From IMG/VR virus record IMGVR_UViG_3300031758_000014: DNA of 62,753 nucleotides; one strand, 5' to 3'. Positions 6,017-30,184 of the stretch are shown in pieces (position 1 is the first letter of the stretch; every line of letters starts with the position of its first letter). Origin of the DNA: an uncultured virus (IMG/VR IMGVR_UViG_3300031758_000014) (taxonomy: Duplodnaviria; Heunggongvirae; Uroviricota; Caudoviricetes). The notes below the pieces were generated by a model, which was given only the letters and a program-made list of their open reading frames with translations, did not search any database and was not told where the DNA came from. The position numbers and the translations under genes were made by a program.

Positions 6017-6048
6017 AAAAAACCCAACTGATTTTGTCAGTTGGGTTT
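6017..6048 (-). terminator. attenuator terminator of tRNA cluster A
   Basis: AAACCCAACTGA/TCAGTTGGGTTT hairpin plus U-run. Confidence 0.88.
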
Positions 6049-6073
6049 CATAATATTTTTTTATTAAAATATA

Positions 6074-6169
6074 TTATAATACACTTTTACTGACAATAGG
6101 TAATCTATACCCCGCCTCATAAGCCTCGTAGCCTCTCGCTTCTATTGATATGTTAACTATTGTTCTCAT
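6074..6169 (-). CDS. leader peptide A: MRTIVNISIEARGYEAYEAGYRLPIVSKSVL
   Basis: Manual translation; E/A/G/Y/I-rich core matches downstream tRNAs; TTGTCAGT antiterminator. Confidence 0.85.
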   Translation of the reverse strand: MRTIVNISIEARGYEAYEAGYRLPIVSKSVL

Positions 6170-16086: not shown

Positions 16087-16120
16087 AAAAAAACCCAGTT
16101 AATCTTTGACTAACCGGGTT
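16087..16120 (-). terminator. attenuator terminator of tRNA cluster B
   Basis: AACCCGGUUAGUC/GAUUAACUGGGUU hairpin (G:U pairs form only on the minus strand) plus U-run. Confidence 0.88.
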
Positions 16121-16142
16121 CATATCATTTAAAGTTTTTTAT

Positions 16143-16244
16143 TTAACTTTTAGACAATAGAGCGTTAGTCCCAAATACTTTAGGTTGATCCTGATCTTGG
16201 ATTTGCGGGTTAACTACTGCGATATTTACGTTAAAAGTTTTCAT
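16143..16244 (-). CDS. leader peptide B: MKTFNVNIAVVNPQIQDQDQPKVFGTNALLSKS
   Basis: Manual translation; PQIQDQDQP core matches Gln/Pro/Asp/Pro tRNAs; GACTAAC antiterminator. Confidence 0.88.
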   Translation of the reverse strand: MKTFNVNIAVVNPQIQDQDQPKVFGTNALLSKS

Positions 16245-16327: not shown

Positions 16328-17060
16328 TTTTTTTAAAATTATTTTTATTTTTTATTGAATTTTCAAAATCTATAAGATTTGAATCATCATTATATAAGTG
16401 ATCATCATCGTTTATGTTATGCTTATATGTATCTTCATATTTATCAATAAATCTAAGATCGTTTTTAGTTAATTTAATTCCGTGTTCAAAAGCATTGAAA
16501 AAATTAACTAAGTTTTCTATTGATTCATCTGTAAATCCCCAATGTGTATCACCATCATATTTTGATCCTATACCATTATAATGAATAATATTTATTTTAT
16601 TTGGAGTTTCGATTGAAAATTCTGAAATAACTTGATCTCCATATGTTATATCAACTAGTAGTTTTATTCCTCTTGTATTCTTAACAAAATGTATATCAAA
16701 TTCTAATAAGTCTGGCTCACCATTTATAATCTCACCATTTTTTGGCTTCATATTATCTCTATAATAATTAAATTGTACTAAATTATTATCAATTGTACAG
16801 TCATTTTTATCAAAAGTATATTCATTATTTGAATTTAGATCGGAGATTGATAGATTTTTGTTTATTCTTTTTAAATTTTGATGTGATAGAATTGTTAATC
16901 TATCTGGTAATAATTTTTCAAACCAATCTTGTTGAAAAATTGAAATTTTTCCATTTTTATTTATATTATCTCCTTTGTGTGGAAGATTTTTAAATCTAAA
17001 ATCTTTACTATCACCATCAATTTTAACTATATTTTCGTTAAACTTTCTCAAATATTTCAT
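16320..17060 (-). CDS. hypothetical protein with N-terminal MKYLRKFNE motif
   Basis: ORF track; TAATATATA upstream. Confidence 0.7.
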   Translation of the reverse strand: MKYLRKFNENIVKIDGDSKDFRFKNLPHKGDNINKNGKISIFQQDWFEKLLPDRLTILSHQNLKRINKNLSISDLNSNNEYTFDKNDCTIDNNLVQFNYYRDNMKPKNGEIINGEPDLLEFDIHFVKNTRGIKLLVDITYGDQVISEFSIETPNKINIIHYNGIGSKYDGDTHWGFTDESIENLVNFFNAFEHGIKLTKNDLRFIDKYEDTYKHNINDDDHLYNDDSNLIDFENSIKNKNNFKKIW

Positions 17061-17091
17061 ATATTTATATATTAAATATAAAATTCTTTTT

Positions 17092-17700
17092 ATGAATAAA
17101 TTATTATACTACTTTTTATACACTTTTAACTTCTTAAAATATAACTTTATTAAATTGTTATGTTTAATTAGTATCATACTATGTACTTTTTACTTAAAAG
17201 ACTATCAAAGAGCGGATACTATCGAGAAGACTGATATTGTTGCTCAAATGGAAATTGAAGGATATTACATATATACCTATAAAGAGATTAAAGAAAATAA
17301 TGTTGAATTTAATAACTTAACTTATGAAACTCCACAAAAAGTAGTCAATAATCAATTAATTACTAAATCATATAGTGGATATAATATTGCTGTTTGGGTC
17401 TTATTTATATCATCAGTTATAACATTCCTTTTGGTAGGTTTTTTAAATTATTGGTTTGATTTACATGGTGTTTTTGAGAAGACTGCTTTTCGTTTTATAA
17501 AAATGGATTTTGAAGATGGTTTTTATCATTATACACTATTTACTAGATTATTAAAAAAGAGTGATACTAAATTACAAATTAGAGAAGTTAGACATCTACT
17601 ATATAACTATTCTAATTTAAGAGAAACTAAATGGGAGCCAATCTTTATTTCCAAGGAAGAAATGAGAGAAAAAAAGTTAAATACTTTGTTTGATAAATAA
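17092..17700 (+). CDS. membrane protein with C-terminal tag (REKKLNTLF)
   Basis: Two hydrophobic segments; start reassigned to MNKLLY. Confidence 0.65.
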   Translation: MNKLLYYFLYTFNFLKYNFIKLLCLISIILCTFYLKDYQRADTIEKTDIVAQMEIEGYYIYTYKEIKENNVEFNNLTYETPQKVVNNQLITKSYSGYNIAVWVLFISSVITFLLVGFLNYWFDLHGVFEKTAFRFIKMDFEDGFYHYTLFTRLLKKSDTKLQIREVRHLLYNYSNLRETKWEPIFISKEEMREKKLNTLFDK

Positions 17701-17729
17701 TATTTTTTATCTTTATCAAAAATACTCTT

Positions 17730-18242
17730 ATGACACCAAATGTTACTTTAATACCAGATTATATCAACTCGGTTGATTTATTTGATTTTATTATAAACAA
17801 CTGTGACTTTGATAGATCTATGAAGGCACGTTGGACCGCATCATTTGGTAAGTCATATGATTATAACGGAATGAGTTATCGTGCTATTCCTTTCCCAGAC
17901 AATTTTACAAATATATTAAACTTGATTAGTGATACGATTGGATTTTTACCAAATAACTGTTTGATAAATCTTTATCATGATGGTAAGAGTTCAATGGGCT
18001 ATCATTCTGATAATACCGATATACTAACACCTGGAACTGGTGTGGTTATAATCTCATTGGGTAGTGACCGAATATTAAGATTTAAGAACAAGATAGATCC
18101 AACTATAATAGTTGATTATACTTTAACAAATGGTTCTTTATTTTACATGGATGACTTAGTTCAGTCAGATTGGTTACACTCAATTCCGAAGTCTGATACA
18201 ACATCACCTCGTATAAGTTTAACATTCAGAAATATAATATGA
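17730..18242 (+). CDS. AlkB-family 2OG-Fe(II) dioxygenase
   Basis: NCLINLY.DG..SMGYHSD, H.IPK, RISLTFR. Confidence 0.9.
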   Translation: MTPNVTLIPDYINSVDLFDFIINNCDFDRSMKARWTASFGKSYDYNGMSYRAIPFPDNFTNILNLISDTIGFLPNNCLINLYHDGKSSMGYHSDNTDILTPGTGVVIISLGSDRILRFKNKIDPTIIVDYTLTNGSLFYMDDLVQSDWLHSIPKSDTTSPRISLTFRNII

Positions 18243-18466
18243 TACATTGTCATATATGTTATTCTACTGATATTGATGAAGATTTCATATGTGATATGTG
18301 TGATCAATATTATTGTGAAGATTGTTCATACACATTTACATTACATTATCAACACCAAGGAGCAAGATGTTATTGGTGTTCTGATCAAAAGAGAAGAAAA
18401 CCTTTATCACCAGCTGATATAAGAGATAATAAGTTAAAAATAATTTTATGGAAAAATCACAATTAG
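18239..18466 (+). CDS. Cys-rich Zn-finger protein with C-terminal tag (RDNKLKIIL)
   Basis: Four CxxC pairs; shared motif. Confidence 0.7.
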   Translation: MIHCHICYSTDIDEDFICDMCDQYYCEDCSYTFTLHYQHQGARCYWCSDQKRRKPLSPADIRDNKLKIILWKNHN

Positions 18467-18861
18467 ATAATTTACTTAAAATTTACGTTATATTTCATAA
18501 AAACTTTTTCCATCATCCAGATTACATAATGGAAAAGTGGGATGCTATTATTGGAACCAAAGTAGAAAGAAAAATTTTAACAGAGACCTCTACAACTGGT
18601 CAAATTACTTGGTGTAATACTTGGTGTGTAAAATGGGAAGACTATTCTAATATAATTCATTTCTTTACGGTTTTAAGCTCTTATGACCTTGGTGAGATAA
18701 CACCAGGTAAAATTATTGATATATATGATAGTTATATTGGTGATCCACATTTAATAAATAAAACTAATTGGAATGGTATACACCGAGTTTCATTACATTA
18801 TATGGAAGACTATATTAAAAAATATTTAAGAGAATATAATTTAGAATTATGTTTAAGATAG
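18448..18861 (+). CDS. hypothetical protein with C-terminal tag variant (REYNLELCL)
   Basis: ORF track. Confidence 0.65.
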   Translation: MEKSQLDNLLKIYVIFHKNFFHHPDYIMEKWDAIIGTKVERKILTETSTTGQITWCNTWCVKWEDYSNIIHFFTVLSSYDLGEITPGKIIDIYDSYIGDPHLINKTNWNGIHRVSLHYMEDYIKKYLREYNLELCLR

Positions 18862-19079
18862 GAGATAGATTGGAATCAAGTGAATATGATAAAATTCAAA
18901 ATGGTATTGAATATGTCACTATAACAAGTATCAATAAGAAAAATAAAATTTATCATTGGGAAGCAGATGATAAATGGTTTGGTGGTAGAATTGTATCTGG
19001 ATATAGATTTGAAGATTCTAAACTTTATATTTCAAAAGAGGATAGAAGAGATAATAAACTAAATGATTTATTAAACTAA
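18849..19079 (+). CDS. hypothetical SH3-like protein with C-terminal tag (RDNKLNDLL)
   Basis: MFKIGD start; shared motif. Confidence 0.7.
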   Translation: MFKIGDRLESSEYDKIQNGIEYVTITSINKKNKIYHWEADDKWFGGRIVSGYRFEDSKLYISKEDRRDNKLNDLLN

Positions 19080-19081
19080 TT

Positions 19082-19309
19082 ATGTTTGTTATTATGTGTA
19101 AATTTAGAATTGGTGATATAGTTGAAATAGTTGCTATACCAAATAGTGAGTTATATAAAGTTATTAAATTTGATGGTGTTTTCATTGTTTGTAGAAACAT
19201 AAAACACTGTGATAATATAAAATATTCAGAGACATATTTCTTTGAGAGTGAGATTCATCTAAATAAATCCGAAACTAGAGATAATATTATAGATAACTTA
19301 TTAAGTTGA
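19082..19309 (+). CDS. hypothetical SH3-like protein with C-terminal tag (RDNIIDNLL)
   Basis: FRIGDIV; shared motif. Confidence 0.65.
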   Translation: MFVIMCKFRIGDIVEIVAIPNSELYKVIKFDGVFIVCRNIKHCDNIKYSETYFFESEIHLNKSETRDNIIDNLLS

Positions 19310-20006
19310 TTTTATCCATTTTCTGATAGCATTATCAGATACTCCATATCTTCGACCAGTCTCTTTATATCCAAACTCTTTTATTTCTTTTAATAAATCT
19401 TCAACCGATGGTCTATCTACTTTTCTAATTGATGTAGAATGACATTTATTACACATTTTGGATGTTTTTTTTATTTGTTTTCCACAAATACAATATTTAT
19501 TTTTAGATTTTTTATCATATTTTGATTTTCTTAGTTCCGATGAACTGCTCTTTTTTGTGGATTTACAGTATGTACTTGTCTGACTATGACAATTTGGACA
19601 CAATATTCTTAGATTTTCTAATCTATTATCTAAATTATCACCATTTTTATGATCTAAATGTAATGATATTGGTTTATCATTCCAGTTTTCTATACCACAT
19701 TCTTCACATTCATATATCTTTAAACCCTCATCAATTAGTCTTTTTTTAAGTTTATGTGTATTTGTATATGTTGAATTTTCAACTAAAATGTCTTCTATTG
19801 GGTATTTTTTATTAAAAGATCTGAATTTATCACCAGTGTTCCATGCCCTTCCGGTAATGACTTATATCAATATTATAAATATTGAAATATTTTTTTAAAC
19901 TCTTGTAGTTACCACCGATTGGTCTTATTCCAAGTTTTCTACAAACATCCGCTATTGATAGCGATTCAATAACAAATCTTTCTAATAAATCTTTATCATA
20001 CTTCAT
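19301..20006 (-). pseudogene. frameshifted HNH endonuclease (paralogue of 15366..16010)
   Basis: ATG at 20006 reads MKYDKDLLE..GGNYKSLKKY..IDISH; frame shifts near 19855 into TGRAWN..LDHKNG..ENLRILCPNCH..GVSDNAIRKW. Confidence 0.8.
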
Positions 20007-20076
20007 TATTATACATTTTAATTTTTTTTATATATTAAAATGTGTAGTCTTCCTTTACCAATGACTTTTAAGTTCG

Positions 20077-20159
20077 TACTCCTGGAGGGAGTTGAACCCT
20101 CACCCAAATCTATGGACAGCATTTTAAGTGCTGCGTGTCTGCCATTCCACCACAGGAGC
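20077..20159 (-). tRNA. tRNA-Leu(TAA)
   Basis: CAGCA CT TAA AA TGCTG; class II variable arm; A73. Confidence 0.9.
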
Positions 20160-20165
20160 AAATAA

Positions 20166-20269
20166 ATAGAGGAAAGTTTCAAAGAGTGAATGTGGATTTG
20201 AACCACTAAGTTTGATTTTAAGTCAAATTGTAAACCATTTACGAAGTAACTCTTTTGATCACCATCTAT
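20166..20269 (-). ncRNA. tRNA-like RNA (TAA anticodon loop) whose acceptor stem is replaced by the conserved stem module
   Basis: ATAGA TGGTGA TCAAAAGAGT TACTT, then D/anticodon/T hairpins, then ACTCTTTGA AACTTTCC TCTAT. Confidence 0.7.
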
Positions 20270-20273
20270 TTAG

Positions 20274-20346
20274 TTGGGAATGTGGGTTACGATCCCACTA
20301 CCTTTAGTATGTAACACTAACGCTCTCCCGATTGAGCTAATTCCCA
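20274..20346 (-). tRNA. tRNA-Val(TAC), T loop ATCGTAA
   Basis: TTAGT GT TAC AT ACTAA. Confidence 0.85.
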
Positions 20347-20355
20347 GTATTTTAG

Positions 20356-20428
20356 TAGGAGATATGGGTTACGATCCCATTGCCTTCACCATGTCGAAGT
20401 GACGCTCTACCAATTGAGCTAATCTCCT
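20356..20428 (-). tRNA. tRNA-Val(GAC), C33 and T loop ATCGTAA
   Basis: TCACT TC GAC AT GGTGA. Confidence 0.82.
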
Positions 20429-20437
20429 ATTATTTAG

Positions 20438-20507
20438 TACCGCACGTGAGGTTCGAACTCACTTAGTCAACCATATGAGGGTCGACCCTTTTCCACTAAG
20501 CCGCGGC
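20438..20507 (-). tRNA. atypical tRNA with CAT anticodon (Met or Ile2), shortened D arm
   Basis: GTCGACC CT CAT AT GGTTGAC; GTGAG TTCGAAC CTCAC. Confidence 0.6.
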
Positions 20508-20517
20508 ATTTACTTTG

Positions 20518-20591
20518 AGCACCAGGAGGGATTTGAACCCCCGTTAATACGCTTTGCAGGCGTATGCCTAAAACCACTCGACCACTGGTGC
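20518..20591 (-). tRNA. tRNA-Cys(GCA)
   Basis: TACGC CT GCA AA GCGTA; U73. Confidence 0.9.
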
Positions 20592-20596
20592 GTGTC

Positions 20597-21307
20597 TTAT
20601 TTTAACCATTTTCTTATAGTGTTATCAGAAACACCATATTTTCTACCAACCGATGAATATCCTAATTCAGATACCTCATGCTTAAGTTCTTCTATATCTG
20701 GTCTAATATTTTTTCGTTGTAGTAGTTTATAACATATATTACAATTAGTGGATTTTGAATTCATGAAATTACCACAACTACATTTTTTTTTATTTTCTTT
20801 TATTTTTTTCTCTTTCTCTTTTACTTTCTTTTTATTATTTTCACTCTTTGTCTTTTTACCAGAATAATTATCTGTTTTAGAATGACAATTTGGACATAAT
20901 ATCATTAGATTACTTAGATTATTATTAAATCTATCACCATCTATATGATGTAACTCAATTGGTATCTTCTCACCTAACCACTCACTTAAATTACAACTCT
21001 CACATATGTGATTTTTTATCCCGTCTTCTATTAACTTATTCTTTAATTTATGACTTGATAAATAAATATTATTATTTATATAATAAAGAGCTTCTTTTCT
21101 ACTATTTGATATTTTATACCCTTTAGCCCCTTGATTACCAAAATATTCAATACCCATTATATCTAAGTATGAATTAAGTGTGGAGTATCTACAATTTAAT
21201 ATTTTACATATTTCTATTTTTGGTTTATTTTCACTAACCATACTAATTATCAAATCTCTTTTCTCTAATATATCATGTCTCATTTTTTTTAATTCTTTTT
21301 TATACAC
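20597..21307 (-). CDS. HNH endonuclease with C-terminal HTH
   Basis: CESC..ELHHIDGD..NN...LCPNCHS; GVSDNTIRKW. Confidence 0.85.
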   Translation of the reverse strand: MYKKELKKMRHDILEKRDLIISMVSENKPKIEICKILNCRYSTLNSYLDIMGIEYFGNQGAKGYKISNSRKEALYYINNNIYLSSHKLKNKLIEDGIKNHICESCNLSEWLGEKIPIELHHIDGDRFNNNLSNLMILCPNCHSKTDNYSGKKTKSENNKKKVKEKEKKIKENKKKCSCGNFMNSKSTNCNICYKLLQRKNIRPDIEELKHEVSELGYSSVGRKYGVSDNTIRKWLK

Positions 21308-21335
21308 TATATATAAAAAAGTAATGTGTCTGTTG

Positions 21336-21426
21336 TATCAGTGGTCGGACTCGAACCGACAATGTTTTCCACGTGGGTATTAGTTCCTAAGACTAACGCG
21401 TTTCAACCAAATTTCGCCACACTGAC
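21336..21426 (-). tRNA. tRNA-Leu(TAG)
   Basis: TTAGT CT TAG GA ACTAA; long variable arm. Confidence 0.9.
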
Positions 21427-21432
21427 ATATCG

Positions 21433-21504
21433 AGCTGATGGAGGGACTTGAACCCCCATTTCATCTTTACAAGAGACGAGTAATGACCGTTATACGACAT
21501 CAGC
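21433..21504 (-). tRNA. tRNA-Thr(TGT)
   Basis: CGTCT CT TGT AA AGATG; GCTGATG acceptor. Confidence 0.88.
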
Positions 21505-21510
21505 ATTTAG

Positions 21511-21583
21511 TAGTTGATGCGGGTTACGATCCCACTACCTCCGACGTATCAGATCGGCGCTCTACCAATTGAGCTAATCAACT
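21511..21583 (-). tRNA. tRNA-Ile(GAT), T loop ATCGTAA
   Basis: CCGAT CT GAT AC GTCGG. Confidence 0.88.
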
Positions 21584-21589
21584 ATTTAG

Positions 21590-21662
21590 TAGTCCTACCG
21601 GGATTCGAACCCAGACGAAACGCTTAGAAGGCGCTTATGCTATCCAGTTACATCATAGAACC
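21590..21662 (-). tRNA. tRNA-Arg(TCT)
   Basis: AGCGC CT TCT AA GCGTT. Confidence 0.88.
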
Positions 21663-21670
21663 ATTTTTTG

Positions 21671-21755
21671 TCGGTAGGGTGGGATTTGAACCCACGTTAT
21701 ACTTTCGTATCCAGTGTATCAGACTGGTCCCTGAAAACCGCTCGGGTACCTACCG
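21671..21755 (-). tRNA. tRNA-Ile(GAT) with long variable arm
   Basis: CCAGT CT GAT AC ACTGG; ATAC GAAA GTAT variable hairpin. Confidence 0.8.
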
Positions 21756-22315
21756 TTTAATCTATCTAATCTTTTTTGTTCTTCTAAATTGAAATGTATT
21801 TCACCATGACAATTTCTACAAACTAAAATACATTTATCAACTTCACTTTTTAATTTCTCAAAAGAGTTTGTTTTTCCACTAATTGTAAAGTCTTTCTCTT
21901 CGGGGTTTAAATGGTGGAATTCTAATGATGTTATACATTTGTTATAACCACATATTTCACAATTATTACCTTTATACTCTACTAATTTTATTTTAACTCT
22001 TCTTCTCCATTCTATTACATTTCTCGAATTTCTATTATCTTCTCTTAATTTATCTGATTTATTTTTATATCTTTTAATTGTACTTATAGATAAGTTAAAT
22101 TTATCAGAAGCCTCTTTTATACTATGATTTTCACAATATTTTTTTATTTCATTTATATCCAAATCATTTACTTTTTTAAGTTTACCAATATCATTCATTC
22201 CATATCTCTTACAATGATATCCAATTGTCGATTTAGATATTTTTAGTTCTTTACTTATTTCATCATAACTTTTACCTTCATTTCTTAATTCAATTATTTT
22301 ATCTTTTGTTTTCAT
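21719..22315 (-). CDS. HTH-HNH endonuclease (paralogue of 4070..4621)
   Basis: CEICGYNKC..LEFHH..CILVCRNCHGEIH; 3' end overlaps tRNA-Ile. Confidence 0.85.
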   Translation of the reverse strand: MKTKDKIIELRNEGKSYDEISKELKISKSTIGYHCKRYGMNDIGKLKKVNDLDINEIKKYCENHSIKEASDKFNLSISTIKRYKNKSDKLREDNRNSRNVIEWRRRVKIKLVEYKGNNCEICGYNKCITSLEFHHLNPEEKDFTISGKTNSFEKLKSEVDKCILVCRNCHGEIHFNLEEQKRLDRLNGRYPSGFQGPV

Positions 22316-22383
22316 AATCTCTAATATATTTTACTTATATATTAAAACTTATGAGCTTTCTTTAACCATTTTGGTTAAGTTAG

Positions 22384-22457
22384 CGGATTTGATAGGACTC
22401 GAACCTACTATCTTCTGCTTAACAGGCAGTAGCTTATACCACTTAAGCTTCAAATCC
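22384..22457 (-). tRNA. tRNA-Asn(GTT)
   Basis: CTGC CT GTT AA GCAG; G73. Confidence 0.85.
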
Positions 22458-22469
22458 TTTATATTTTTG

Positions 22470-22557
22470 AGGGCCCGGTAGGATTCGAACCTACTTTATT
22501 TCAATTTTTCATACAGTGATTAACAGTCACCAGCTAAAACCATTAAGCTACTGACCC
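22470..22557 (-). tRNA. tRNA-Asn(GTT) with long variable region
   Basis: GGTGA CT GTT AA TCACT; about 20-nt A-rich variable region. Confidence 0.72.
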
Positions 22558-22568
22558 GTATGTAAAAT

Positions 22569-22602
22569 AAAAAACCCTCAGATTTTTTGTCTGAGGGTTT
22601 TT
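22569..22602 (-). terminator. attenuator terminator of tRNA cluster C
   Basis: AAAAACCCTCAGA/TCTGAGGGTTTTT hairpin. Confidence 0.88.
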
Positions 22603-22625
22603 CAAGTTTTTTATTCTATAAAAAT

Positions 22626-22742
22626 TTATAGAGTAGTTAAGTCATGAAAACCCTCACTATGTCTAATACATAACGTATTTAACACCATCACTGTATTCAG
22701 TGTGTTATTTACATTAATCATATTTAAGTTAATAGTTCTCAT
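22626..22742 (-). CDS. leader peptide C: MRTINLNMINVNNTLNTVMVLNTLCIRHSEGFHDLTTL
   Basis: Manual translation; first 27 residues use only N/L/M/I/V/T/C/R, matching the cluster; TGAGGGTTTT antiterminator. Confidence 0.85.
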   Translation of the reverse strand: MRTINLNMINVNNTLNTVMVLNTLCIRHSEGFHDLTTL

Positions 22743-22788
22743 TGTTTTTATATTTTAATTGTTTTTATTCTGTTTTAATTTTACTTTA

Positions 22789-22922
22789 CAAAGATACAAA
22801 AGTTTTTTAAATATCCAAAAAGTTTTTTTAATTTTTTATTATATATTAAAAAACTTTTCTCCCTTTTGTGTTTTTGTTATATTTATACTACAAATTTAGT
22901 AAAAAGTTTTAAATATACCAAA
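22789..22922 (-). promoter_or_regulatory. tandem Bacteroidota-type promoters of cluster C
   Basis: TTTG-N19-TAtcTTTG (22789-22819) and TTTG-N20-TAaaTTTG (22891-22922), with a TAATATATA motif between. Confidence 0.78.
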
Positions 22923-22925
22923 TTT

Positions 22926-23327
22926 TTATAATATTTTTTTCCAAAATCTTTCTGGAAGATGTATGTTCTCAATATTTACACACTCATTAAATAGTGGTGC
23001 AACATCTTTTGGTTTTAATCCAGCTAAACCACATCCTACTTCAGTTACTAAAAATATCAAATTCTGATTGTTTTTAGCAAATTCAATAAAATCATCAACA
23101 AATGGTTTTATCTCAACTATTGAAAGTGTTCTTCTAATAGAAGCGTCTTTGGTTGGTATTCCATAAGTTCTACCTTGTAAACCAGCGGCTTGACCCCATT
23201 TAGCTCCCCAGGTAAGAGCTTGTTTAGCTGCTCCTTTTCCGTGTCTACCAGATAAATTAGAACCAAAAACAAATATTTCATTTGTGTTTAGTTTTGTGAT
23301 GTTATCTGATGTTACTCTATTTTCCAT
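22926..23327 (-). CDS. macrodomain-like phage protein (A1S_2505-type)
   Basis: IFVFGSNL.G.HG.GAA; YGIPTK; VTEVGCGLAG. Confidence 0.75.
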   Translation of the reverse strand: MENRVTSDNITKLNTNEIFVFGSNLSGRHGKGAAKQALTWGAKWGQAAGLQGRTYGIPTKDASIRRTLSIVEIKPFVDDFIEFAKNNQNLIFLVTEVGCGLAGLKPKDVAPLFNECVNIENIHLPERFWKKIL

Positions 23328-23356
23328 ACGTGTTATATTAAAAATGAATAATAAGT

Positions 23357-23653
23357 TTATCTACCTCTTTTTCTATTGTGTGTTGTTGTACTATCATAGA
23401 AGTCAGGTTCTTTTTTAGAAACCCATTTTATGAATTTTTCCATCTCTGGATGTTCTTTAACCAACTCAGCATTATTATAATTCTTTTCTAATTCTTTTTC
23501 TGTAAATAATGAATGTATTTTTCGGTGACATATTTTATGTAACCATTCAGTTTCTTTACCACCTCTACATTTGGGAAGGAAATGGTGACGATCAACAAAT
23601 TGATTTTCCCACATTTCTCTATCACAAATAGGACAAATGCCAATTACTTTCAT
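23357..23653 (-). CDS. small HNH endonuclease
   Basis: MKVIGICPICD..HHFLPK..H.ICH.KIH; upstream part of the track ORF is tRNA-Ser. Confidence 0.8.
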   Translation of the reverse strand: MKVIGICPICDREMWENQFVDRHHFLPKCRGGKETEWLHKICHRKIHSLFTEKELEKNYNNAELVKEHPEMEKFIKWVSKKEPDFYDSTTTHNRKRGR

Positions 23654-23656
23654 AAG

Positions 23657-23743
23657 AGGAAGAAGTGGGAGTCGAACCCAGCCCGAGTTAACGAGCCCTT
23701 GTTTTCCAAACAAGTGAGAGGACCACCTCTTCTCGCATCTTCC
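23657..23743 (-). tRNA. tRNA-Ser(GGA)
   Basis: CTTGT TT GGA AA ACAAG; long variable arm. Confidence 0.8.
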
Positions 23744-23745
23744 GT

Positions 23746-23832
23746 TGGCGGAGAGCAGAGTATTCGAAACCCACACGTTGTCGTGCCACTCGCTTAGCAG
23801 GCGGTGCTGAGGACCTCCTCAGTTTACTCTCC
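23746..23832 (-). tRNA. tRNA-Ser(GCT)
   Basis: CT GCT AA loop; long variable arm; GCCA end. Confidence 0.82.
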
Positions 23833-23840
23833 ATTTATTT

Positions 23841-23927
23841 TGGCGGAAGAGTGAGGTATCGATCCCCATACCTTTCGGTACCACTAGTTTTCAAGACTAG
23901 GTCAAGCGCCAGCTTAATTACTCTTCC
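23841..23927 (-). tRNA. tRNA-Ser(TGA)
   Basis: CTAGT CT TGA AA ACTAG; long variable arm; GCCA end. Confidence 0.85.
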
Positions 23928-23935
23928 ATATGTTG

Positions 23936-24021
23936 CGGAAAGAGAGGGATTCGAACCCTCGGATCTTGTTTCAGATCTACGGTTTTCAAGACCGCTCCAC
24001 TCAACCAACGTTACCCTTTCC
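23936..24021 (-). tRNA. tRNA-Ser(TGA)
   Basis: GCGGT CT TGA AA ACCGT; long variable arm. Confidence 0.85.
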
Positions 24022-24029
24022 AATTTTTG

Positions 24030-24101
24030 TAGTCATAGAGGGAATTGAACCCCCACCTGATCGTTCGTAGCGACCTGTCCTATCCGTTAGACGATATGAC
24101 T
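24030..24101 (-). tRNA. tRNA-Arg(ACG)
   Basis: GGTCG CT ACG AA CGATC. Confidence 0.88.
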
Positions 24102-24105
24102 AAAT

Positions 24106-24138
24106 AAAAAAACCCTCAGATTATTAATCCGAGGGTTT
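24106..24138 (-). terminator. attenuator terminator of tRNA cluster D
   Basis: AAACCCUCGGAUUA/UAAUCUGAGGGUUU hairpin plus U-run. Confidence 0.88.
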
Positions 24139-24163
24139 ATTATATAATATTATTATTACCTAA

Positions 24164-24238
24164 TTATAAACACAATCGGATTACATGTCCACTACTCGAG
24201 CGACTTGACGAAACTAATATGTTTAAAATTGTTCTCAT
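24164..24238 (-). CDS. leader peptide D: MRTILNILVSSSRSSSGHVIRLCL
   Basis: Manual translation; SSSRSSS matches Arg(ACG) plus four Ser tRNAs; TAATCCGA antiterminator. Confidence 0.9.
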   Translation of the reverse strand: MRTILNILVSSSRSSSGHVIRLCL

Positions 24239-24296
24239 AATATTTTTTATTTCTTTGTTTATATATTACAAATGTAATACTTCCTTTTTAATTTTC

Positions 24297-24509
24297 CTAA
24301 TTTATTATTTCTTTTATTTCTTCTATTGTAAAAAGTTTACCTTTATTATCATTTTCACATTTAGTATAACCTTCAATAAATGCTTCAATTATATTTTTAT
24401 CGGTTATTCCTTTTTCTTCTGCCCATTTTTGAGCTTTCTTTTCAATCTTAGAAGGTTTTCTTCTATGATATGGTGTTAAGTCAGTATAGTTATCACTTCT
24501 TTCTGGCAT
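24297..24509 (-). CDS. hypothetical protein
   Basis: ORF track. Confidence 0.55.
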   Translation of the reverse strand: MPERSDNYTDLTPYHRRKPSKIEKKAQKWAEEKGITDKNIIEAFIEGYTKCENDNKGKLFTIEEIKEIIN

Positions 24510-24526
24510 ATTTGTTTTTTATTTTT

Positions 24527-24657
24527 TGGTAGGGAGATGGGACTCGAACCCATGACCACGCGGTTAACAGCCGAAGTAACTCTTCTAATCAACACTCTTT
24601 CGAGGTAAAGTTATAGAAAAGTAAAGTACGTGCTCTACCAACTGAGCTACTCCCTAC
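24527..24657 (-). tRNA. tRNA-Asn(GTT) interrupted by a 55-nt structured insertion between positions 28 and 29
   Basis: Removing 24574-24628 restores CGCGG CT GTT AA CCGCG; the insert is the conserved module closed by CTC-GAAA-GAG. Confidence 0.8.
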
Positions 24658-24674
24658 ATATATATTTTAATTTG

Positions 24675-24746
24675 TTGCCCCGGTGGGGATTGAACCCACG
24701 ATCCCCTGATTAAGAGTCAGGTGCTTTACCACTCAGCTACAAGGCA
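24675..24746 (-). tRNA. tRNA-Lys(CTT)
   Basis: CCTGA CT CTT AA TCAGG. Confidence 0.88.
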
Positions 24747-24752
24747 ATTTAG

Positions 24753-24825
24753 TGGAGCCGACGGGTTACGATCCCGTTCCTCTGGTTTTTCAGACCAGCG
24801 CAATGACCACATCTGCCACAGCTCC
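24753..24825 (-). tRNA. tRNA-Phe(GAA)
   Basis: CTGGT CT GAA AA ACCAG; identical to 25243-25315. Confidence 0.88.
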
Positions 24826-24835
24826 TTATATTTTG

Positions 24836-24909
24836 GGTGAATAACGGGCTACGATCCCGCGACCTCTGGATTCACAATCCAGCGCTCTTACCAACTGAGC
24901 TATATTCAC
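24836..24909 (-). tRNA. tRNA-His(GTG)
   Basis: CTGGA TT GTG AA TCCAG; C73. Confidence 0.88.
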
Positions 24910-24911
24910 AG

Positions 24912-24984
24912 TGACCCCGGTGGGTTACGATCCCACTCTCCCCATATTAAAAGTATGGTGCTTTCCCGATTAAGCTACGAAGTC
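24912..24984 (-). tRNA. tRNA-Lys(TTT)
   Basis: CCATA CT TTT AA TATGG; T loop ATCGTAA. Confidence 0.86.
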
Positions 24985-24994
24985 ATATTTTTAG

Positions 24995-25065
24995 CACGGG
25001 TACCAAGATTCGAACTCGGAACAACGGTTTTGGAGACCGGCATGATACCATTTCACTATACCCGT
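24995..25065 (-). tRNA. tRNA-Trp(CCA)
   Basis: CGGT CT CCA AA ACCG; G73. Confidence 0.88.
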
Positions 25066-25074
25066 GTATGTTAG

Positions 25075-25147
25075 CGCGTCACCAAGGACTCGAACCCTGA
25101 CCCTTCGGGTTGGAACCGAAGATGCTAAGCCATTACACCAATGACGC
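25075..25147 (-). tRNA. tRNA-Trp(CCA)
   Basis: TTCGG TT CCA AC CCGAA; G73. Confidence 0.85.
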
Positions 25148-25158
25148 TTGTATTTTAG

Positions 25159-25232
25159 TGACCCCGGTGGGATTCGAACCCACGGTCTTCCGATTAAAAG
25201 TCGGAGGCTTGAACCAACTCAGCTACGAAGTC
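25159..25232 (-). tRNA. tRNA-Lys(TTT)
   Basis: TCCGA CT TTT AA TCGGA; identical to 25410-25483. Confidence 0.9.
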
Positions 25233-25242
25233 ATATTTTTAG

Positions 25243-25315
25243 TGGAGCCGACGGGTTACGATCCCGTTCCTCTGGTTTTTCAGACCAGCGCAATGACCAC
25301 ATCTGCCACAGCTCC
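25243..25315 (-). tRNA. tRNA-Phe(GAA)
   Basis: Identical copy of 24753-24825. Confidence 0.88.
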
Positions 25316-25323
25316 TTATTTTG

Positions 25324-25398
25324 GGTGTACGACCGGTAACGATCCGGCTATCTTCACTTTCACAGAGTGACGGGTCTACCATTTCCCCTTCATACACC
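25324..25398 (-). tRNA. tRNA-His(GTG)
   Basis: G-1:C73; TCACT CT GTG AA AGTGA. Confidence 0.86.
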
Positions 25399-25409
25399 AT
25401 TTATTTTAG

Positions 25410-25483
25410 TGACCCCGGTGGGATTCGAACCCACGGTCTTCCGATTAAAAGTCGGAGGCTTGAACCAACTCAGCTACGAAGTC
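25410..25483 (-). tRNA. tRNA-Lys(TTT)
   Basis: TCCGA CT TTT AA TCGGA. Confidence 0.9.
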
Positions 25484-25492
25484 ATAAGAAAC

Positions 25493-25521
25493 AAAAAAAC
25501 CCAAGTCTTTTGAACTTGGGT
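25493..25521 (-). terminator. attenuator terminator of tRNA cluster E
   Basis: ACCCAAGU/ACUUGGGU hairpin plus U-run. Confidence 0.86.
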
Positions 25522-25543
25522 CTGTTTGTAGTTATATTTTATT

Positions 25544-25663
25544 TTATAAAGTCGTTAAGTCTTCAAAAAATAAACACAATACTTTTCCAGTACCAAGTTC
25601 TGATTTATTGCTAAACCATTTGCTTGATTTACTAAAATGTTTATGTTTATTAATTGTTCTCAT
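25544..25663 (-). CDS. leader peptide E: MRTINKHKHFSKSSKWFSNKSELGTGKVLCLFFEDLTTL
   Basis: Manual translation; K/H/F/W/N core matches the cluster; GAACTTGG antiterminator. Confidence 0.88.
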   Translation of the reverse strand: MRTINKHKHFSKSSKWFSNKSELGTGKVLCLFFEDLTTL

Positions 25664-25711
25664 TATTTCTATATATTAAAAGTTTTTTCTCTCTTTGTTA
25701 ATTTTATACTA

Positions 25712-25833
25712 CAAATTTAATAAAAGTTTTTATATCTACCAAATTATTTGTAAAAATTATTGAAAATTGTATCTAAATCGTTTCCTTTTTCAATAACAAT
25801 ACAAATATAAGGAGATTATTTTAATCTACCAAA
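25712..25833 (-). promoter_or_regulatory. tandem Bacteroidota-type promoters of cluster E
   Basis: TTTG-N20-TAaaTTTG (25712-25743) and TTTG-N20-TAtaTTTG (25802-25833). Confidence 0.78.
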
Positions 25834-25913
25834 TTATTTAGGTCCGTAACCTAATAAATTAATTTCATTTAATATTCTATTAAAATCCTTTATGAAATCT
25901 ATAAACTTCTTCA

Positions 25914-27758
25914 TTATTCTATCCAATTTTCTAATACTTCTTTTTCTAAGTTAAGACTTCTTAATAAGTTTTTAACTTTGTTTAAATATTCATCTTCATC
26001 TTCAAACTTAATTCTTGGTAATCTACCATCTAACACACCATTATAATAATCAAGTTTTTTATCAATAGCATCTATCAATTTTTCAAGATTAGGATTTCTG
26101 AATAAATAGTGTAACTCATCTGTGTAGTAACCTTTACCAGGTTTGATATCTAATAATTCACAATGTGATCTTGATAACATACCTAAATCGGTATCATAAA
26201 CCTCTATTCTTAGATCTGTTATATAATATTTACCCATTTCTTCGGAGTAAGATAACATACCATCATAAAAATTATAATGTACACCATCATGGTCTAAGTA
26301 ATTTTCACAAGCTAATCTACTTGTACTGATAGCATCACTATAAACATCAGACTCATCAGAAACATCACCATAATCAAATCTGGATATACTTATGGACCAA
26401 CTATATATGTCATCATCGACTGAAGTTATTATTGATGTGTTATCACCTTCATAATAACTTCTATCTAAAAATTCAGAGTAGTAAGCATCATGTTCATTAA
26501 TATATTCTTCTCTAAATTCATCATAAACTATATCATTTGAGTCTTCTGGATACCATCCTAAATATCTCCTATTACCTACTGATACTTCTACAGCATCATT
26601 TCTTCGTATGTATGATTCTAACCAATCAGAGTAAACAGCTTCATCTTCTGGAATCCTTTCATCATAATAATCAGACCAAACTCCACTATAATCTTCATAA
26701 GTACCATCTGTACAAGTTAATCCCCAATCTTGATCTTCGTTATCATCATTGTATAATAATCTATTATCAACATCTAATCTTTTGAATGTATCCATATATG
26801 GGTAGTAATTAAACTTAGCTTTATCTAATCTAATTCTGATGTCAATCCAATTATGATTTTCGCCTTTATATGTTATATCTCTTACTTGACTATAACCAGA
26901 GTATGTTCTTCTAGCCCATCCCATTTCATCTGAATAATCTTTGAATAATTTAGTTATTGAGTCATCCTTTCCGTAAATTCTATCCATGAAGAATTCGGCT
27001 TCTTCTATATCACTTGATTTATGATCATTTAATTTCCAAACAAGTGCTCTACCTAATACTTTATCTTCTTCATTTAAATAAACAAGAAGTTGTACTATTT
27101 CTGTATTTTCAACATAAATATCTAAATATTTTTGACATTTATCATATCTCATACAAGAATTTCCTAAATCTCCAGCTTCTTCTTCATAATTAGATACTAA
27201 ATAATACTTTCTAATATCTTCTCCCTTAACTAAAATGAATTTATTTTCACCAGGTTTGTTTAAGTTTTTGAAGTTATTGACAAACTCTTCAACTTCTTTT
27301 GAAGAGTATTTACCTGGAAATATTTGATTGACTAATCTACCAATACCTGTTGAGTTTCTTGATTTTGTACTTAATTCATAATCTTGATATGTGAATAGGT
27401 TTCGTATCTCACCATCTGTTATAGTACCCCCTTTCATCTTTTCCTCTATATCATTAAATAAGTTTTTTGCTATATCTGGGGTGTATTTAGCCTCAAGTCC
27501 TTTTTTTATTAGGGAAACTGCTTTTTTGAATTGTGTGAATTTAATATCACCTTCATTATCACCTAATGAAATAAAAGTCATATCTGGTTTTACATCGGTG
27601 TATTCAACTTCTAATAGATTTTGAGCAATTACACTCTTTTTTAGATTTCTTAATTTTATTAAAGAATCTTTGAAATCTCTTGTATAGAAAATCATAGATT
27701 CATTTATAGCACTTTCTAATATTAAGTCTTCTTTAAATGAATTATATCTGTGTAACAT
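25914..27758 (-). CDS. conserved phage protein (SCMR..GRALVW..DRIY..YPYMDTF), putative virion-packaged
   Basis: 614 aa ORF; motif set recurrent in large phages; N-terminal YNSF...LILE. Confidence 0.7.
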   Translation of the reverse strand: MLHRYNSFKEDLILESAINESMIFYTRDFKDSLIKLRNLKKSVIAQNLLEVEYTDVKPDMTFISLGDNEGDIKFTQFKKAVSLIKKGLEAKYTPDIAKNLFNDIEEKMKGGTITDGEIRNLFTYQDYELSTKSRNSTGIGRLVNQIFPGKYSSKEVEEFVNNFKNLNKPGENKFILVKGEDIRKYYLVSNYEEEAGDLGNSCMRYDKCQKYLDIYVENTEIVQLLVYLNEEDKVLGRALVWKLNDHKSSDIEEAEFFMDRIYGKDDSITKLFKDYSDEMGWARRTYSGYSQVRDITYKGENHNWIDIRIRLDKAKFNYYPYMDTFKRLDVDNRLLYNDDNEDQDWGLTCTDGTYEDYSGVWSDYYDERIPEDEAVYSDWLESYIRRNDAVEVSVGNRRYLGWYPEDSNDIVYDEFREEYINEHDAYYSEFLDRSYYEGDNTSIITSVDDDIYSWSISISRFDYGDVSDESDVYSDAISTSRLACENYLDHDGVHYNFYDGMLSYSEEMGKYYITDLRIEVYDTDLGMLSRSHCELLDIKPGKGYYTDELHYLFRNPNLEKLIDAIDKKLDYYNGVLDGRLPRIKFEDEDEYLNKVKNLLRSLNLEKEVLENWIE

Positions 27759-27791
27759 TATAAAAAATGAATTTTAATTATATATTAAAAT

Positions 27792-28418
27792 TCATTCCTC
27801 ATTTTCATACTCTTTTCTTATACATCTAACTGAAAGGAAATCTCCCAAGTCGGCTTTTCCTCTTCCAACATTGTATATTTCATCAAACTCTATACCCCAT
27901 GCTTTTTCACCATCTTTAGTTGATGTCCAGTAGAATGATCCTTTTATAACAATTAATGACTTTTTAATTGTATCGTTAATAGTATCGGTCTTGTAACCTT
28001 TGTATCCATTGTTATTATTTACAAATGCTTTTAGTTGATCTTCGCTTAATGTATTTATTAGTGTGTCCCAATCTTGTTTAGATGGTAGAAACCAACCAGT
28101 TGGACAAGAACTCATTGCTCCTTCATAGTTTAGTTTTAAAGAATCGTAAGTAGGATTTATAAAACTACCAATTCCTTTTTGATCTCTTTGAGTTTCAAGA
28201 TTTAGTAGGTATTTTTGATCTTTATATGGTATTAAATCATCTCGCATCCAAGAAACAAAGTGTTTTATACCACCATTATCATCGAATATGGGAATTTCTA
28301 TAACTCTATATAAATGAAAGTTATGATGTATATGACCTTCTTTTAATCTAACTTGTTTATCTTGTGATAAAGATATAAGTGATAAAAGTGTAAAGATTAA
28401 TAATATAAAATATCTCAT
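27792..28418 (-). CDS. secreted FISUMP (Fib_succ_major)-domain protein
   Basis: Signal peptide; CPTGWFLPS..DW, YWTST, SVRCIR. Confidence 0.75.
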   Translation of the reverse strand: MRYFILLIFTLLSLISLSQDKQVRLKEGHIHHNFHLYRVIEIPIFDDNGGIKHFVSWMRDDLIPYKDQKYLLNLETQRDQKGIGSFINPTYDSLKLNYEGAMSSCPTGWFLPSKQDWDTLINTLSEDQLKAFVNNNNGYKGYKTDTINDTIKKSLIVIKGSFYWTSTKDGEKAWGIEFDEIYNVGRGKADLGDFLSVRCIRKEYENEE

Positions 28419-28678
28419 AATATACTATTTAGTTTTTTATTTCTAATCTCACTTAAATAATCTTGAGTTCTAACAAATGCTTTTATATTAAATCCGTTTT
28501 TAGTTTCAGCATTAAAAACTATTGCGTCTATTAAGATACCAGAATCAAAAAATTTACCATCTTCAAAATAACTACCATTCGAATTAGGAGTTATACTAAT
28601 AATGTTGTGATTTTCATTTTCATTTTGACTATTAGCCAATTTTATTATTAAATCGATATCTATATCTTTTAAATTCAT
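28415..28678 (-). CDS. hypothetical protein with C-terminal tag (RNKKLNSIL)
   Basis: ORF track; shared motif. Confidence 0.7.
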   Translation of the reverse strand: MNLKDIDIDLIIKLANSQNENENHNIISITPNSNGSYFEDGKFFDSGILIDAIVFNAETKNGFNIKAFVRTQDYLSEIRNKKLNSIL

Positions 28679-28710
28679 AAAAATGTTTTTATTTTTTAAT
28701 ATATAAAGAT

Positions 28711-29235
28711 ATGAAATTTAATTCACACAACAAAATTAATTTTATTGGAATGAAATCAAAAAAACATATCAGAGATTTCAGGATATTTGAATATGTTAAT
28801 AACAATGTTGATGTTGTTGTTGGTTTATTAGTTTTATGTAAATCCACCAATAGAGTTTTCTTAATTCAAAGAAATGATACAAATCAATATTGGTCAATAT
28901 TAACTGGTGGTTATGATCCAAAAGTTGATGTTGATTATTTAGATTGTATAAAAAGAGAAATGTCTGAAGAACTTAGATTTAATGATATTAATTCGATAAA
29001 AATATCAAATGGTGGTGATGAGTTTATCGCATCTAAAAATAGAAACTTTAAATATTTCTATGGTGTTGTGGATAAAGAATTTTCTGTTATATTGGATGAT
29101 GAAAATTTAAATTGGGGTTGGTTTTCAATGAATGGTGAATCAACAATCAATGGTCAATTTAATTCATTCGGTTTACCTGATAATCTTTATCCAGGAGTAA
29201 TTCAAAAAATACAAACTATATTTAGTATTTATTAA
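28711..29235 (+). CDS. NUDIX hydrolase
   Basis: Degenerate Nudix box GG......CIKREMSEEL. Confidence 0.75.
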   Translation: MKFNSHNKINFIGMKSKKHIRDFRIFEYVNNNVDVVVGLLVLCKSTNRVFLIQRNDTNQYWSILTGGYDPKVDVDYLDCIKREMSEELRFNDINSIKISNGGDEFIASKNRNFKYFYGVVDKEFSVILDDENLNWGWFSMNGESTINGQFNSFGLPDNLYPGVIQKIQTIFSIY

Positions 29236-30184
29236 AAAAATCTTTTTCAACATCAAAAGTTGATTTCTTACCAACATTTTTCAATTCATCTTTAATCCAT
29301 CTATCAGCAACTTGTCTTCCAGCATTCTTTAATTTTAAAAGAAAATTTAAATCAGTATTCATTTTAGTTGAGTAATCTAATTTACCTAATGTTTCATAAC
29401 CAGATATTAAGTGTACAAATATTTCTTCACTTCCATATTTACCTAAATCTAAACCATCTCTAATTAATTCATTTCTAATTTGTATCATTCTCATTTCATT
29501 CATTAATGAGGAATTGAAACATATTTCAGTTACTCTATCATTTATATCTTTTGCATTCATAGGAACTTGATTTATATTTATAGAGTTTAACTTAATTAAG
29601 ATTAAATCTGTTACTTTTGAGTTTAGAATTAGTGGTGAAAGTGGTGGATTTCCCATATATCCACCATCCCAATAGTAATCATCACCAATTTTAACAGCTT
29701 GAAAGACACTTGGTAGAGCAGTTGATGCCATTACCGAGTCAATTGTAATGTTTCTACCATTAAATATTTTTACATTATTAGTTTTAACATTTGTTGCACA
29801 GATGAATAATTTCACATTAGTCTTTTTTAGCTCATTAAAATCAACTATATTTAGTAATATATTTCTTAAAGGATTTATATTAAGTGGATTGAATTGGTAG
29901 GGAGATATAAATTGAGTGAAATATTCAACAAACGGATAACTTAATTTAAATCCATGTTTGGATATATCTACCCAAAGTTTTTCAAGTAGTTCTTTGGCTT
30001 TTTGGCGACCGCCTATATGTAAACCCCATGTCATTACAACAGCATTTACAGCACCAGCTGAAGTACCACAAATTGAATCAAATGATAACTCTTTTTCATC
30101 AAGTTCTAACAATCTATCCAACACACCCCAAGCGAAGGCTCCGTGAGAGCCTCCTCCTTGTAGTGCTAATCCTATTTTACTCAT
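29222..30184 (-). CDS. patatin-like phospholipase
   Basis: QGGGSHGA, GTSAG, YWDGGY. Confidence 0.9.
   Translation of the reverse strand: MSKIGLALQGGGSHGAFAWGVLDRLLELDEKELSFDSICGTSAGAVNAVVMTWGLHIGGRQKAKELLEKLWVDISKHGFKLSYPFVEYFTQFISPYQFNPLNINPLRNILLNIVDFNELKKTNVKLFICATNVKTNNVKIFNGRNITIDSVMASTALPSVFQAVKIGDDYYWDGGYMGNPPLSPLILNSKVTDLILIKLNSININQVPMNAKDINDRVTEICFNSSLMNEMRMIQIRNELIRDGLDLGKYGSEEIFVHLISGYETLGKLDYSTKMNTDLNFLLKLKNAGRQVADRWIKDELKNVGKKSTFDVEKDFFNKY

Follow-up and report, generated by a model that had tools for sequence, protein, structure and literature searches.

A candidate leader-peptide attenuator in front of a tRNA operon of an uncultured phage

The window analyzed here is the whole 62,753-nucleotide stretch of an uncultured virus of the Caudoviricetes (IMG/VR record IMGVR_UViG_3300031758_000014), and our subject is a locus within it, called attenuator E (positions 25,493 to 25,833), which precedes an operon of eleven transfer RNA (tRNA) genes and which we read as a probable ribosome-mediated transcription attenuator. 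The window is AT-rich (G+C ~25-36% across its length). ARAGORN called 33 tRNA genes in it, all on the minus strand, and Rfam gave several further ones. The nearest named records were two uncultured phage genomes, LR745206.1 (635 kb) and LR756502.1 (642 kb). A passage of PMC7162821 gives phages larger than 634 kb a predicted replication in Bacteroidetes, and the strings 'attenuat' and 'leader' are both absent from the main text of that paper. When the 614-residue protein encoded next to the locus was used as a query, only three identical copies of the same phage were returned.

The leader, the terminator and tRNA operon E

Two promoter-like sites, P1 and P2, stand upstream of a short leader open reading frame (ORF) (Table 1). 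Their motif, TTTG/TAnnTTTG, is stated in a passage of PMC7366714 to be the consensus of the Bacteroidetes primary sigma factor, and a statement in the same paper has Bacteroidetes lacking Shine-Dalgarno sequences. The motif (TTTG, ~20 nt, TAnnTTTG) has 12 matches in the window as compared with 4.56 +/- 1.90 in shuffled sequences, and six of the 12 lie upstream of leader ORFs. Between P2 and the leader ATG is a second conserved element with 15 matches at three or fewer mismatches (3.1 expected), which may be a phage promoter. A lone tRNA-Met gene of the window (6254-6355, minus strand) also stands behind this element (exact match at 6355-6338) and has neither a leader ORF nor a terminator; it may be made constitutively.

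An earlier note, made from the letters of this DNA, had described positions 25663-25544 as a leader with His, His, Phe, Trp and Phe residues set among Lys codons and matched to 11 downstream tRNA genes (Lys/His/Phe/Trp/Asn). Both parts of that description held. The leader is a 39-codon ORF running from ATG to TAA, and codons 6-20 comprise six Lys, two His, two Phe, one Trp, one Asn and three Ser codons, Ser occurring five times in the whole ORF. Ten of the tRNAs were called by ARAGORN (25483 to 24674) and the 11th was found by Rfam at 24656-24529 (43.6 bits). This last tRNA has its anticodon stem interrupted, on the 5' strand, by a 55-nt insertion, and its Asn(GTT) anticodon was read by eye; ARAGORN returned 'Stop(tta)' with an intron for the copy in the window, and Asn(gtt) with a 55-56-nt intron for those of two relatives (L012 and L020). 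One metatranscriptome contig (run X16), the shorter side of which has just 21 letters, jumps from 24573 to 24629 (55 nt), and it represents either spliced RNA or an insertion-free relative.

The first tRNA of the operon (Lys, 25483) begins 10 nt past the end of the T-run that follows the terminator hairpin (25493). There is no space for a promoter between the two and hence transcripts of the tRNAs must cross the terminator. The possibility that the hairpin serves as the terminator of the upstream 614-residue gene was rejected because two promoter-like sites and the ORF intervene between the end of that gene (25914) and the hairpin. Terminator-like sites numbered 17 in positions 14000-30000, against 4.5 +/- 2.5 in shuffled sequences.

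Relatives of E were gathered with a degenerate pattern derived from the E leader, which matched 18 viral contigs. An E-type leader was present in 16 of these; L009 and L017 were excluded as chance matches within a protein gene of at least 100 codons. Together with the window and two GenBank phages the leaders gave 14 distinct variants (alignment A1), all of which have an intact leader ORF of 28-39 codons followed by a terminator and then by His/Phe/Lys tRNAs. The pattern forces the Phe-Ser-Lys and Lys-Trp-Phe codons, and thus the conservation of those codons is circular. The His-Lys-His codons (7-9), which the pattern does not force, are found in 13 of the 14 variants with synonymous changes of the Lys codon. 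Position-wise variation in the unforced part of the alignment was uninformative, with 7, 8 and 8 of 11 columns variable at codon positions 1, 2 and 3, respectively. In two relatives, Lys-rich mini-ORFs of nine codons, four of them Lys, with a hairpin that has no T-run, sit inside the E operon immediately before the Lys tRNA block (L001 20666-20695 and L002 22018-22047, both minus strand).

Small shares of four metatranscriptome runs yielded solely contigs of relatives having different tRNA orders, from which no transcript starts, ends or levels could be read. Contigs covering the leader region of relatives (25576-25742) were present in two metatranscriptome runs, which is not proof of transcription.

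Table 1 Features of the attenuator E locus and of the four units of the same build in the window
Feature	Positions	Strand	Remarks
P1 promoter-like site	25802..25833	minus	TTTG, 20-nt spacer, TAnnTTTG (Bacteroidetes primary-sigma type)
P2 promoter-like site	25712..25743	minus	P1 motif again; leader ATG 49 nt downstream
Second conserved upstream element	25670..25687	minus	Common to other leaders; also directly before the leaderless tRNA-Met (6328)
Leader ORF E	25544..25663	minus	ATG to TAA, 39 codons plus stop
Putative regulatory codon run (codons 5-20)	25604..25651	minus	Lys x6, His x2, Phe x2, Trp x1, Asn x2, Ser x3
Region 1 (ORF nt 27-42)	25622..25637	minus	Strand pairing with region 2; predicted anti-antiterminator
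Region 2 (ORF nt 64-79)	25585..25600	minus	Predicted antiterminator strand; first 8 nt complement the terminator 5' arm
Intrinsic terminator hairpin (regions 3 and 4)	25497..25523	minus	11 pairs, -13.4 kcal/mol, then 7-T run to 25493
tRNA operon E	24529..25483	minus	Lys(ttt) x3, Lys(ctt), His(gtg) x2, Phe(gaa) x2, Trp(cca) x2, Asn(gtt)
70-codon ORF between cluster E and leader D	24297..24509	minus	No Pfam family
Putative attenuator D	24110..24238	minus	24-codon leader 24238-24164 with 6 Ser and 1 Arg codons; terminator 24138..24110
tRNA operon D	23658..24101	minus	Arg(acg), Ser(tga) x2, Ser(gct), Ser(gga)
Putative attenuator C	22568..22742	minus	38-codon leader 22742-22626 and terminator
tRNAs behind C			Asn x2, Ile x2, Arg(tct), Thr, Leu x2, Cys, Val x2
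Putative attenuator B	16091..16244	minus	33-codon leader 16244-16143 with Pro/Gln/Asp run; terminator
Genes behind B			HNH ORF, then tRNAs Gln, Pro, Asp, Pro
Putative attenuator A	6019..6169	minus	31-codon leader 6169-6074 with Ile/Glu/Ala/Gly/Tyr run; terminator
tRNAs behind A			Tyr, Ile(tat)-like, Gly x2, Ala x2

Alternative folds of the leader and their covariation

The complementarity that the earlier note had seen between positions 25600-25593 and the terminator (25519-25512) is an exact Watson-Crick match to the terminator 5' arm plus the first base of the loop. In the minimum free energy (MFE) fold of the full-length leader, the part carrying the regulatory codons forms a long helix with the segment at ~25600-25570 (region 1:2) and the terminator is also formed. 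When the 3' arm of the terminator was removed, the MFE fold had ORF nt 64-75 paired with the 5' arm. The window contains five putative switches, namely E and four units of the same build on the minus strand (A to D, Table 1), three of which share their first codons, and the fold switch upon removal of the 3' arm was seen in all five leaders. The number of shuffled ORFs (per 2000) that reached the observed complement length was 5 for A, 98 for B, 1 for C, 21 for D and 80 for E.

Covariation was scored over the 14 variants of alignment A1. In the terminator 99.2% of 125 cells were paired and both sides had changed in six of nine pairs; the eight pairs of the antiterminator had 95.7% of cells paired and both-side changes in four. 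Control pairings in which one antiterminator strand was slid by 1-3 columns gave at most 45% paired. RNAalifold, unprompted, returned a 14-pair region 1:2 helix (columns 27-33 with 73-79 and 36-42 with 66-72) having compensatory changes at two pairs, 39:69 and 41:67. As predicted from these alignments, pairings 1:2, 2:3 and 3:4 make up the four-region layout of a classical attenuator; the strength of the 1:2 pairing relative to 2:3 is uncertain. An inner antiterminator helix (columns 82-87 with 137-142) was also considered and was discarded, having 85% of cells paired, no compensatory change and a poor fit in the window.

The effect of a ribosome on these folds was approximated by a crude footprint model that masked the A-site codon's flanks, 15 nt on the 5' side and 12 nt on the 3' side. 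For leader E the terminator 5' arm was sequestered when the A site was on codons 1-19, and free when it was on codons 20-29 and at the stop codon. Every Lys, His, Phe, Trp and Asn codon of the E run falls within the sequestering zone of this model.

Codon match of leaders and operons in the window and in relatives

Over the whole E ORF, 15 of 38 codons specify amino acids of the operon tRNAs, compared with a background of 0.257. These codons are unevenly placed: 12 of the 20 codons upstream of region 2 match, versus three of the 18 from region 2 onward. When the five leaders were pooled the counts were 66 of 111 upstream of region 2 and 9 of 49 after it (one-sided Fisher p ~1e-6), the 66/111 count taking in a Glu anticodon loop of operon A seen by eye and the Rfam-based Asn of E. 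The binomial p values obtained with called tRNAs only were 0.022 (A), 0.081 (B), 7e-6 (C), 0.0075 (D) and 0.044 (E). Leader C, the first 27 codons of which are nearly all Asn, Leu, Ile, Val, Thr, Cys, Arg and Met, has 25 matched codons of 37. With whole ORFs, the true assignment of the window leaders to their operons ranked first of 120 permutations.

A cross-genome test, for which 40-kb stretches of four large relatives were retrieved, covered seven genome stretches and 30 leader candidates in all. An uncurated script picked out a terminator, the preceding ORF and the following tRNAs; tRNAs to which ARAGORN gave an intron or no amino acid were excluded, and one candidate with a second terminator before its first tRNA was dropped. 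Enrichment for the amino acids of the candidate's own operon exceeded 1 in all 30 (p <0.05 in 19 and <0.01 in 12). The true assignment came first in six of the seven stretches (of 120, 6, 24, 120, 2 and 24 permutations), and in the seventh, which includes a doubtful 43-codon candidate, it came 9th of 5040.

Leaders and operons also change together. The Glu/Tyr tRNAs are separated from the Ile/Gly/Ala tRNAs, as two operons, in G002, G005 and LR756502 and partly in G003. Of these relatives, G002, G005 and LR756502 have a first leader in which Tyr/Glu codons abound and a second in which Ile/Ala/Gly codons do; in G003 only the second (Ile/Ala/Gly) leader was detected. The window and G004 have a single merged operon with a single leader that mixes Glu, Tyr, Ile, Gly and Ala codons. 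In G004 (L026 10057-12826, plus strand) a leader in which three His codons alternate with three Phe codons, and a terminator behind it, precede two synthetase genes. One encodes a truncated-looking protein of 211 residues resembling histidyl-tRNA synthetase (HisRS) (PF13393, E 5e-21) and the other a single-chain phenylalanyl-tRNA synthetase (PheRS) of 366 residues with an FDX-ACB domain (PF01409, E 3e-35). Synthetase genes are a classical target of switches of this type. The evidence beyond chance is modest for E alone and strong across the family and across genomes. The predicted switch system is conserved across huge phages of 260-640 kb that are predicted to infect Bacteroidetes, and the five putative switches of the window would jointly gate tRNAs for nearly all amino acids.

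The Ser codons of leader E require separate comment. The earlier note had correctly observed that the five Ser codons have no Ser tRNA in operon E, and had suggested nested control of the Ser operon that follows (cluster D). One part of that suggestion stood. A strong terminator between E and D was sought, and no minus-strand terminator-like site is listed from 24529 to leader D (24238). Moreover, in L011, L020 and L021 a D-type leader begins 156-188 nt after the last E tRNA and is without a TAnnTTTG element (the host-type -7 element). The lack of an E-D terminator and the D leaders of these three relatives make E-to-D read-through plausible, and E transcripts probably run into D, which would place two switches in series. 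Nested control by the Ser codons of E fared less well, since a codon-matched attenuator stands before the Ser/Arg cluster itself, with a separate -7 element in the window. The terminator of leader D lies between E and the Ser tRNAs, and D-type leaders are found in eight of nine relatives with Arg(acg) within 2.7 kb. In addition, RNAalifold places Ser codons 11, 13 and 14 of leader E in the partner strand of region 2, within a conserved helix that has compensatory changes at two pairs, and the presence of these codons thus has a structural explanation without Ser sensing. Sensing of Ser by E is possible but is not needed.

The tRNA genes of the other operons have several peculiarities. The Ser tRNAs of operon D (tga, tga, gct, gga) are consecutive at 23658-24021 (minus strand) and ARAGORN calls just the first; the last three anticodons were taken from the Rfam alignment or by eye, gct by eye. 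Despite their Ser anticodons, three of these four tRNAs have tRNA-Sec as their best Rfam match (38.9-47.3 bits). Operon A contains, at 4678-4758 (minus strand), an Rfam tRNA match of 39.5 bits with no D arm, a 22-nt variable region and a TAT anticodon loop and, directly past terminator A at 5938-6005 (minus strand), a short Tyr(GTA)-like sequence seen by eye only and without an Rfam match. At 3482-3640 (minus strand) there is a piece resembling a tRNA 3' half (T arm plus the 3' strand of the acceptor) and, downstream of it, a piece resembling a 5' half. ARAGORN found no tRNA in the native order, and found a tRNA in three of three trials in which the pieces were swapped; the anticodon is TCG or TTC. 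This is possibly a circularly permuted tRNA gene, for example the missing Glu tRNA of operon A, or it could be a rearranged pseudogene. ORFs resembling homing endonucleases lie among the tRNA genes on the minus strand (15369-16010, 20600-21307, 21722-22315, 23360-23653, ~4090-4650 and 5266-5880). Three have weak HNH Pfam matches near the cutoff, and that at ~5266-5880 is GIY-YIG-like by eye. The attenuators of operons A and B are each separated from the first normal tRNA by an ORF of this kind.

Proposed mechanism, alternatives and known systems

On the basis of the computed features of the locus (the ORF, the terminator, the mutually exclusive pairings, their covariation, and the codon-to-tRNA match with its conservation) we propose that E attenuates transcription of a phage tRNA operon through a ribosome-mediated, leader-peptide mechanism with the classical four regions. 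We put the probability of this reading at about 0.8. The view of the earlier note that E is a codon-matched attenuator for Lys/His/Phe/Trp/Asn tRNAs thus finds support, at the level of sequence, in the anatomy of the locus, its covariation and its paralogs. The phage would probably make these tRNAs only upon slow reading of the leader codons by the ribosome. Host RNA polymerase would start at P1 or P2 and transcribe the 39-codon leader. A ribosome that lingers at a Lys, His, Phe, Trp or Asn codon (codons 5-19) would cover region 1 and leave region 2 free to pair with the terminator 5' arm, such that no terminator would form and the polymerase would enter the 11 tRNA genes. If the codons were read fast, the ribosome would pass region 2 to the stop codon, the terminator would form and transcription would end. 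The outcome would be negative feedback, in which the tRNA set is made when usable Lys/His/Phe/Trp/Asn tRNA is short and halted once the supply is restored. Translation of the ORF, its coupling to transcription and the direction of the response are parts of this scheme that we infer, as is the physiological trigger, which would be depletion of host tRNAs in infection.

Several points weigh against the attenuator proposal. The truncated RNA already forms the antiterminator (8 of 10 arm bases) without a ribosome, and a ribosome on codons 30-37 again permits it; timing and kinetics must therefore decide the outcome. That translation and transcription are coupled in the presumed Bacteroidetes host is an assumption, and leader B fits the footprint model poorly. 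The 14 variants are related and hence the covariation rests on few events. The Trp tRNA was called by ARAGORN behind only 10 of the 14 variants, Rfam adding weak uncalled tRNAs in two of the four variants without a Trp call, and the three Ser codons of the E run match no tRNA of operon E. For E alone, the complement length is only mildly significant (80 of 2000 shuffles), unlike that across the set of five leaders. The codon match of E is likewise modest (p 0.044 in the window test or 0.011 in the cross-genome test) because Lys, Asn and Phe are common in an AT-rich genome.

This modest enrichment, together with the abundance of terminator-like hairpins in the window, would suit an explanation in which the hairpin is a constitutive leaky terminator, or an insulator or processing hairpin, the ORF is untranslated or irrelevant, and output is set by promoter strength and fixed read-through. 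We consider this unlikely, as the ORF remains in frame in 14 variants despite insertions and deletions, each of the 30 leaders matches its own operon, the leader splits where the operon splits, and the antiterminator covariation between the ORF and the terminator 5' arm would be left unexplained. A real switch read without a ribosome seems to us equally improbable. It would act through T-box-like binding of tRNA, with codon triplets as specifiers, or through a TRAP- or PyrR-like protein of the phage or host. A choice between terminator and antiterminator fits RNA- or protein-mediated control just as well, and the regulated genes are tRNAs, the ligand of the T-box. However, over positions 1-30000 Rfam reported no T-box or other riboswitch family at the gathering cutoff or at E values up to 1, and an ATG, an open frame and a stop codon are always present. 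The matched triplets are in frame and cluster shortly before region 2, at the place where stalling of a ribosome would take effect, and the leaders hold matches to as many as seven amino acids each, which is beyond any single binding site.

Conservation of the peptide itself raises another alternative. The His-Lys-His-Phe-Ser-Lys core of E is highly conserved in amino acids, with synonymous changes of Lys and Ser codons, as would be expected of a nascent-chain arrest peptide (like SecM, TnaC or the Erm leaders) or of a micro-protein that senses something other than tRNA supply. Much of this core was forced by the search pattern, however, and the C-terminal halves are unconserved. The paralogs share N-terminal codons, yet they diverge in the central run, which in each follows the tRNA set of its own operon, and we regard an arrest peptide as very improbable.

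The ribosome-mediated attenuator, if taken together with the four other units, allows a wider interpretation that we offer tentatively and at rather less than even odds. The five switches could constitute a homeostat of translation as a whole that detects which host tRNAs are depleted and resupplies only those, and so acts as a counter-defense sensor. The tRNAs of essentially all amino acids would be split into operons, each behind a test ORF written in its own codons, and in a relative the same leader type would also gate synthetase genes. Depletion might come, for example, from anticodon nucleases targeting Lys or from host shut-off.

The locus bears on the question of why tRNA genes occur by the dozen in large phages and how their expression is controlled. 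If the attenuator reading is true, this phage gauges how fast each codon is decoded and makes tRNAs as they are needed, and its leaders would be natural modular sensors of individual tRNA supply. The logic of attenuation is already known for amino-acid operons and some synthetases. Full-text literature searches, from the coverage of which subscription journals are mostly missing, gave no account of leader-peptide attenuation of tRNA genes, and the novelty would lie in a classical attenuation mechanism acting on a new target class, the tRNA genes. Among the Rfam leader families (Trp_leader, His_leader, Leu_leader, Thr_leader, PheL and others) none matched at the gathering cutoff. The sole match at E values up to 1, a sub-threshold one of His_leader on leader D (28.8 bits versus a cutoff of 49, E 0.59), was given no weight.

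E resembles the T-box (RF00230) in that a terminator/antiterminator decision would report the state of specific tRNAs with codon-like specificity. It differs in having no Stem I, specifier loop or T-box sequence and in having a conserved, presumably translated ORF; over positions 1-30000 RF00230 gave no match at the gathering cutoff or at E values up to 1. The resemblance to enterobacterial attenuators is in the short leader ORF with its regulatory codon run, in pairings 1:2, 2:3 and 3:4, and in the terminator with its U-run. Some enterobacterial attenuators are multivalent, such as the thr leader (Thr/Ile) and the ilvGMEDA leader (Ile/Leu/Val), and in E also one leader would serve several amino acids. 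Unlike these attenuators, E would gate 11 tRNA genes rather than genes of biosynthetic enzymes or aminoacyl-tRNA synthetases, is phage-borne behind promoters of the Bacteroidetes type, and has an ORF that extends through region 2 into the antiterminator loop. The E. coli pheST attenuator, with its pheM leader, controls phenylalanyl-tRNA synthetase. Like pheST, E would attenuate a part of the translation apparatus by sensing the decoding of cognate codons, and the His/Phe leader of G004 has exactly the pheST-type arrangement. Unlike pheST, the product in the window is tRNA, and the loop would close on tRNA abundance rather than on charging capacity.

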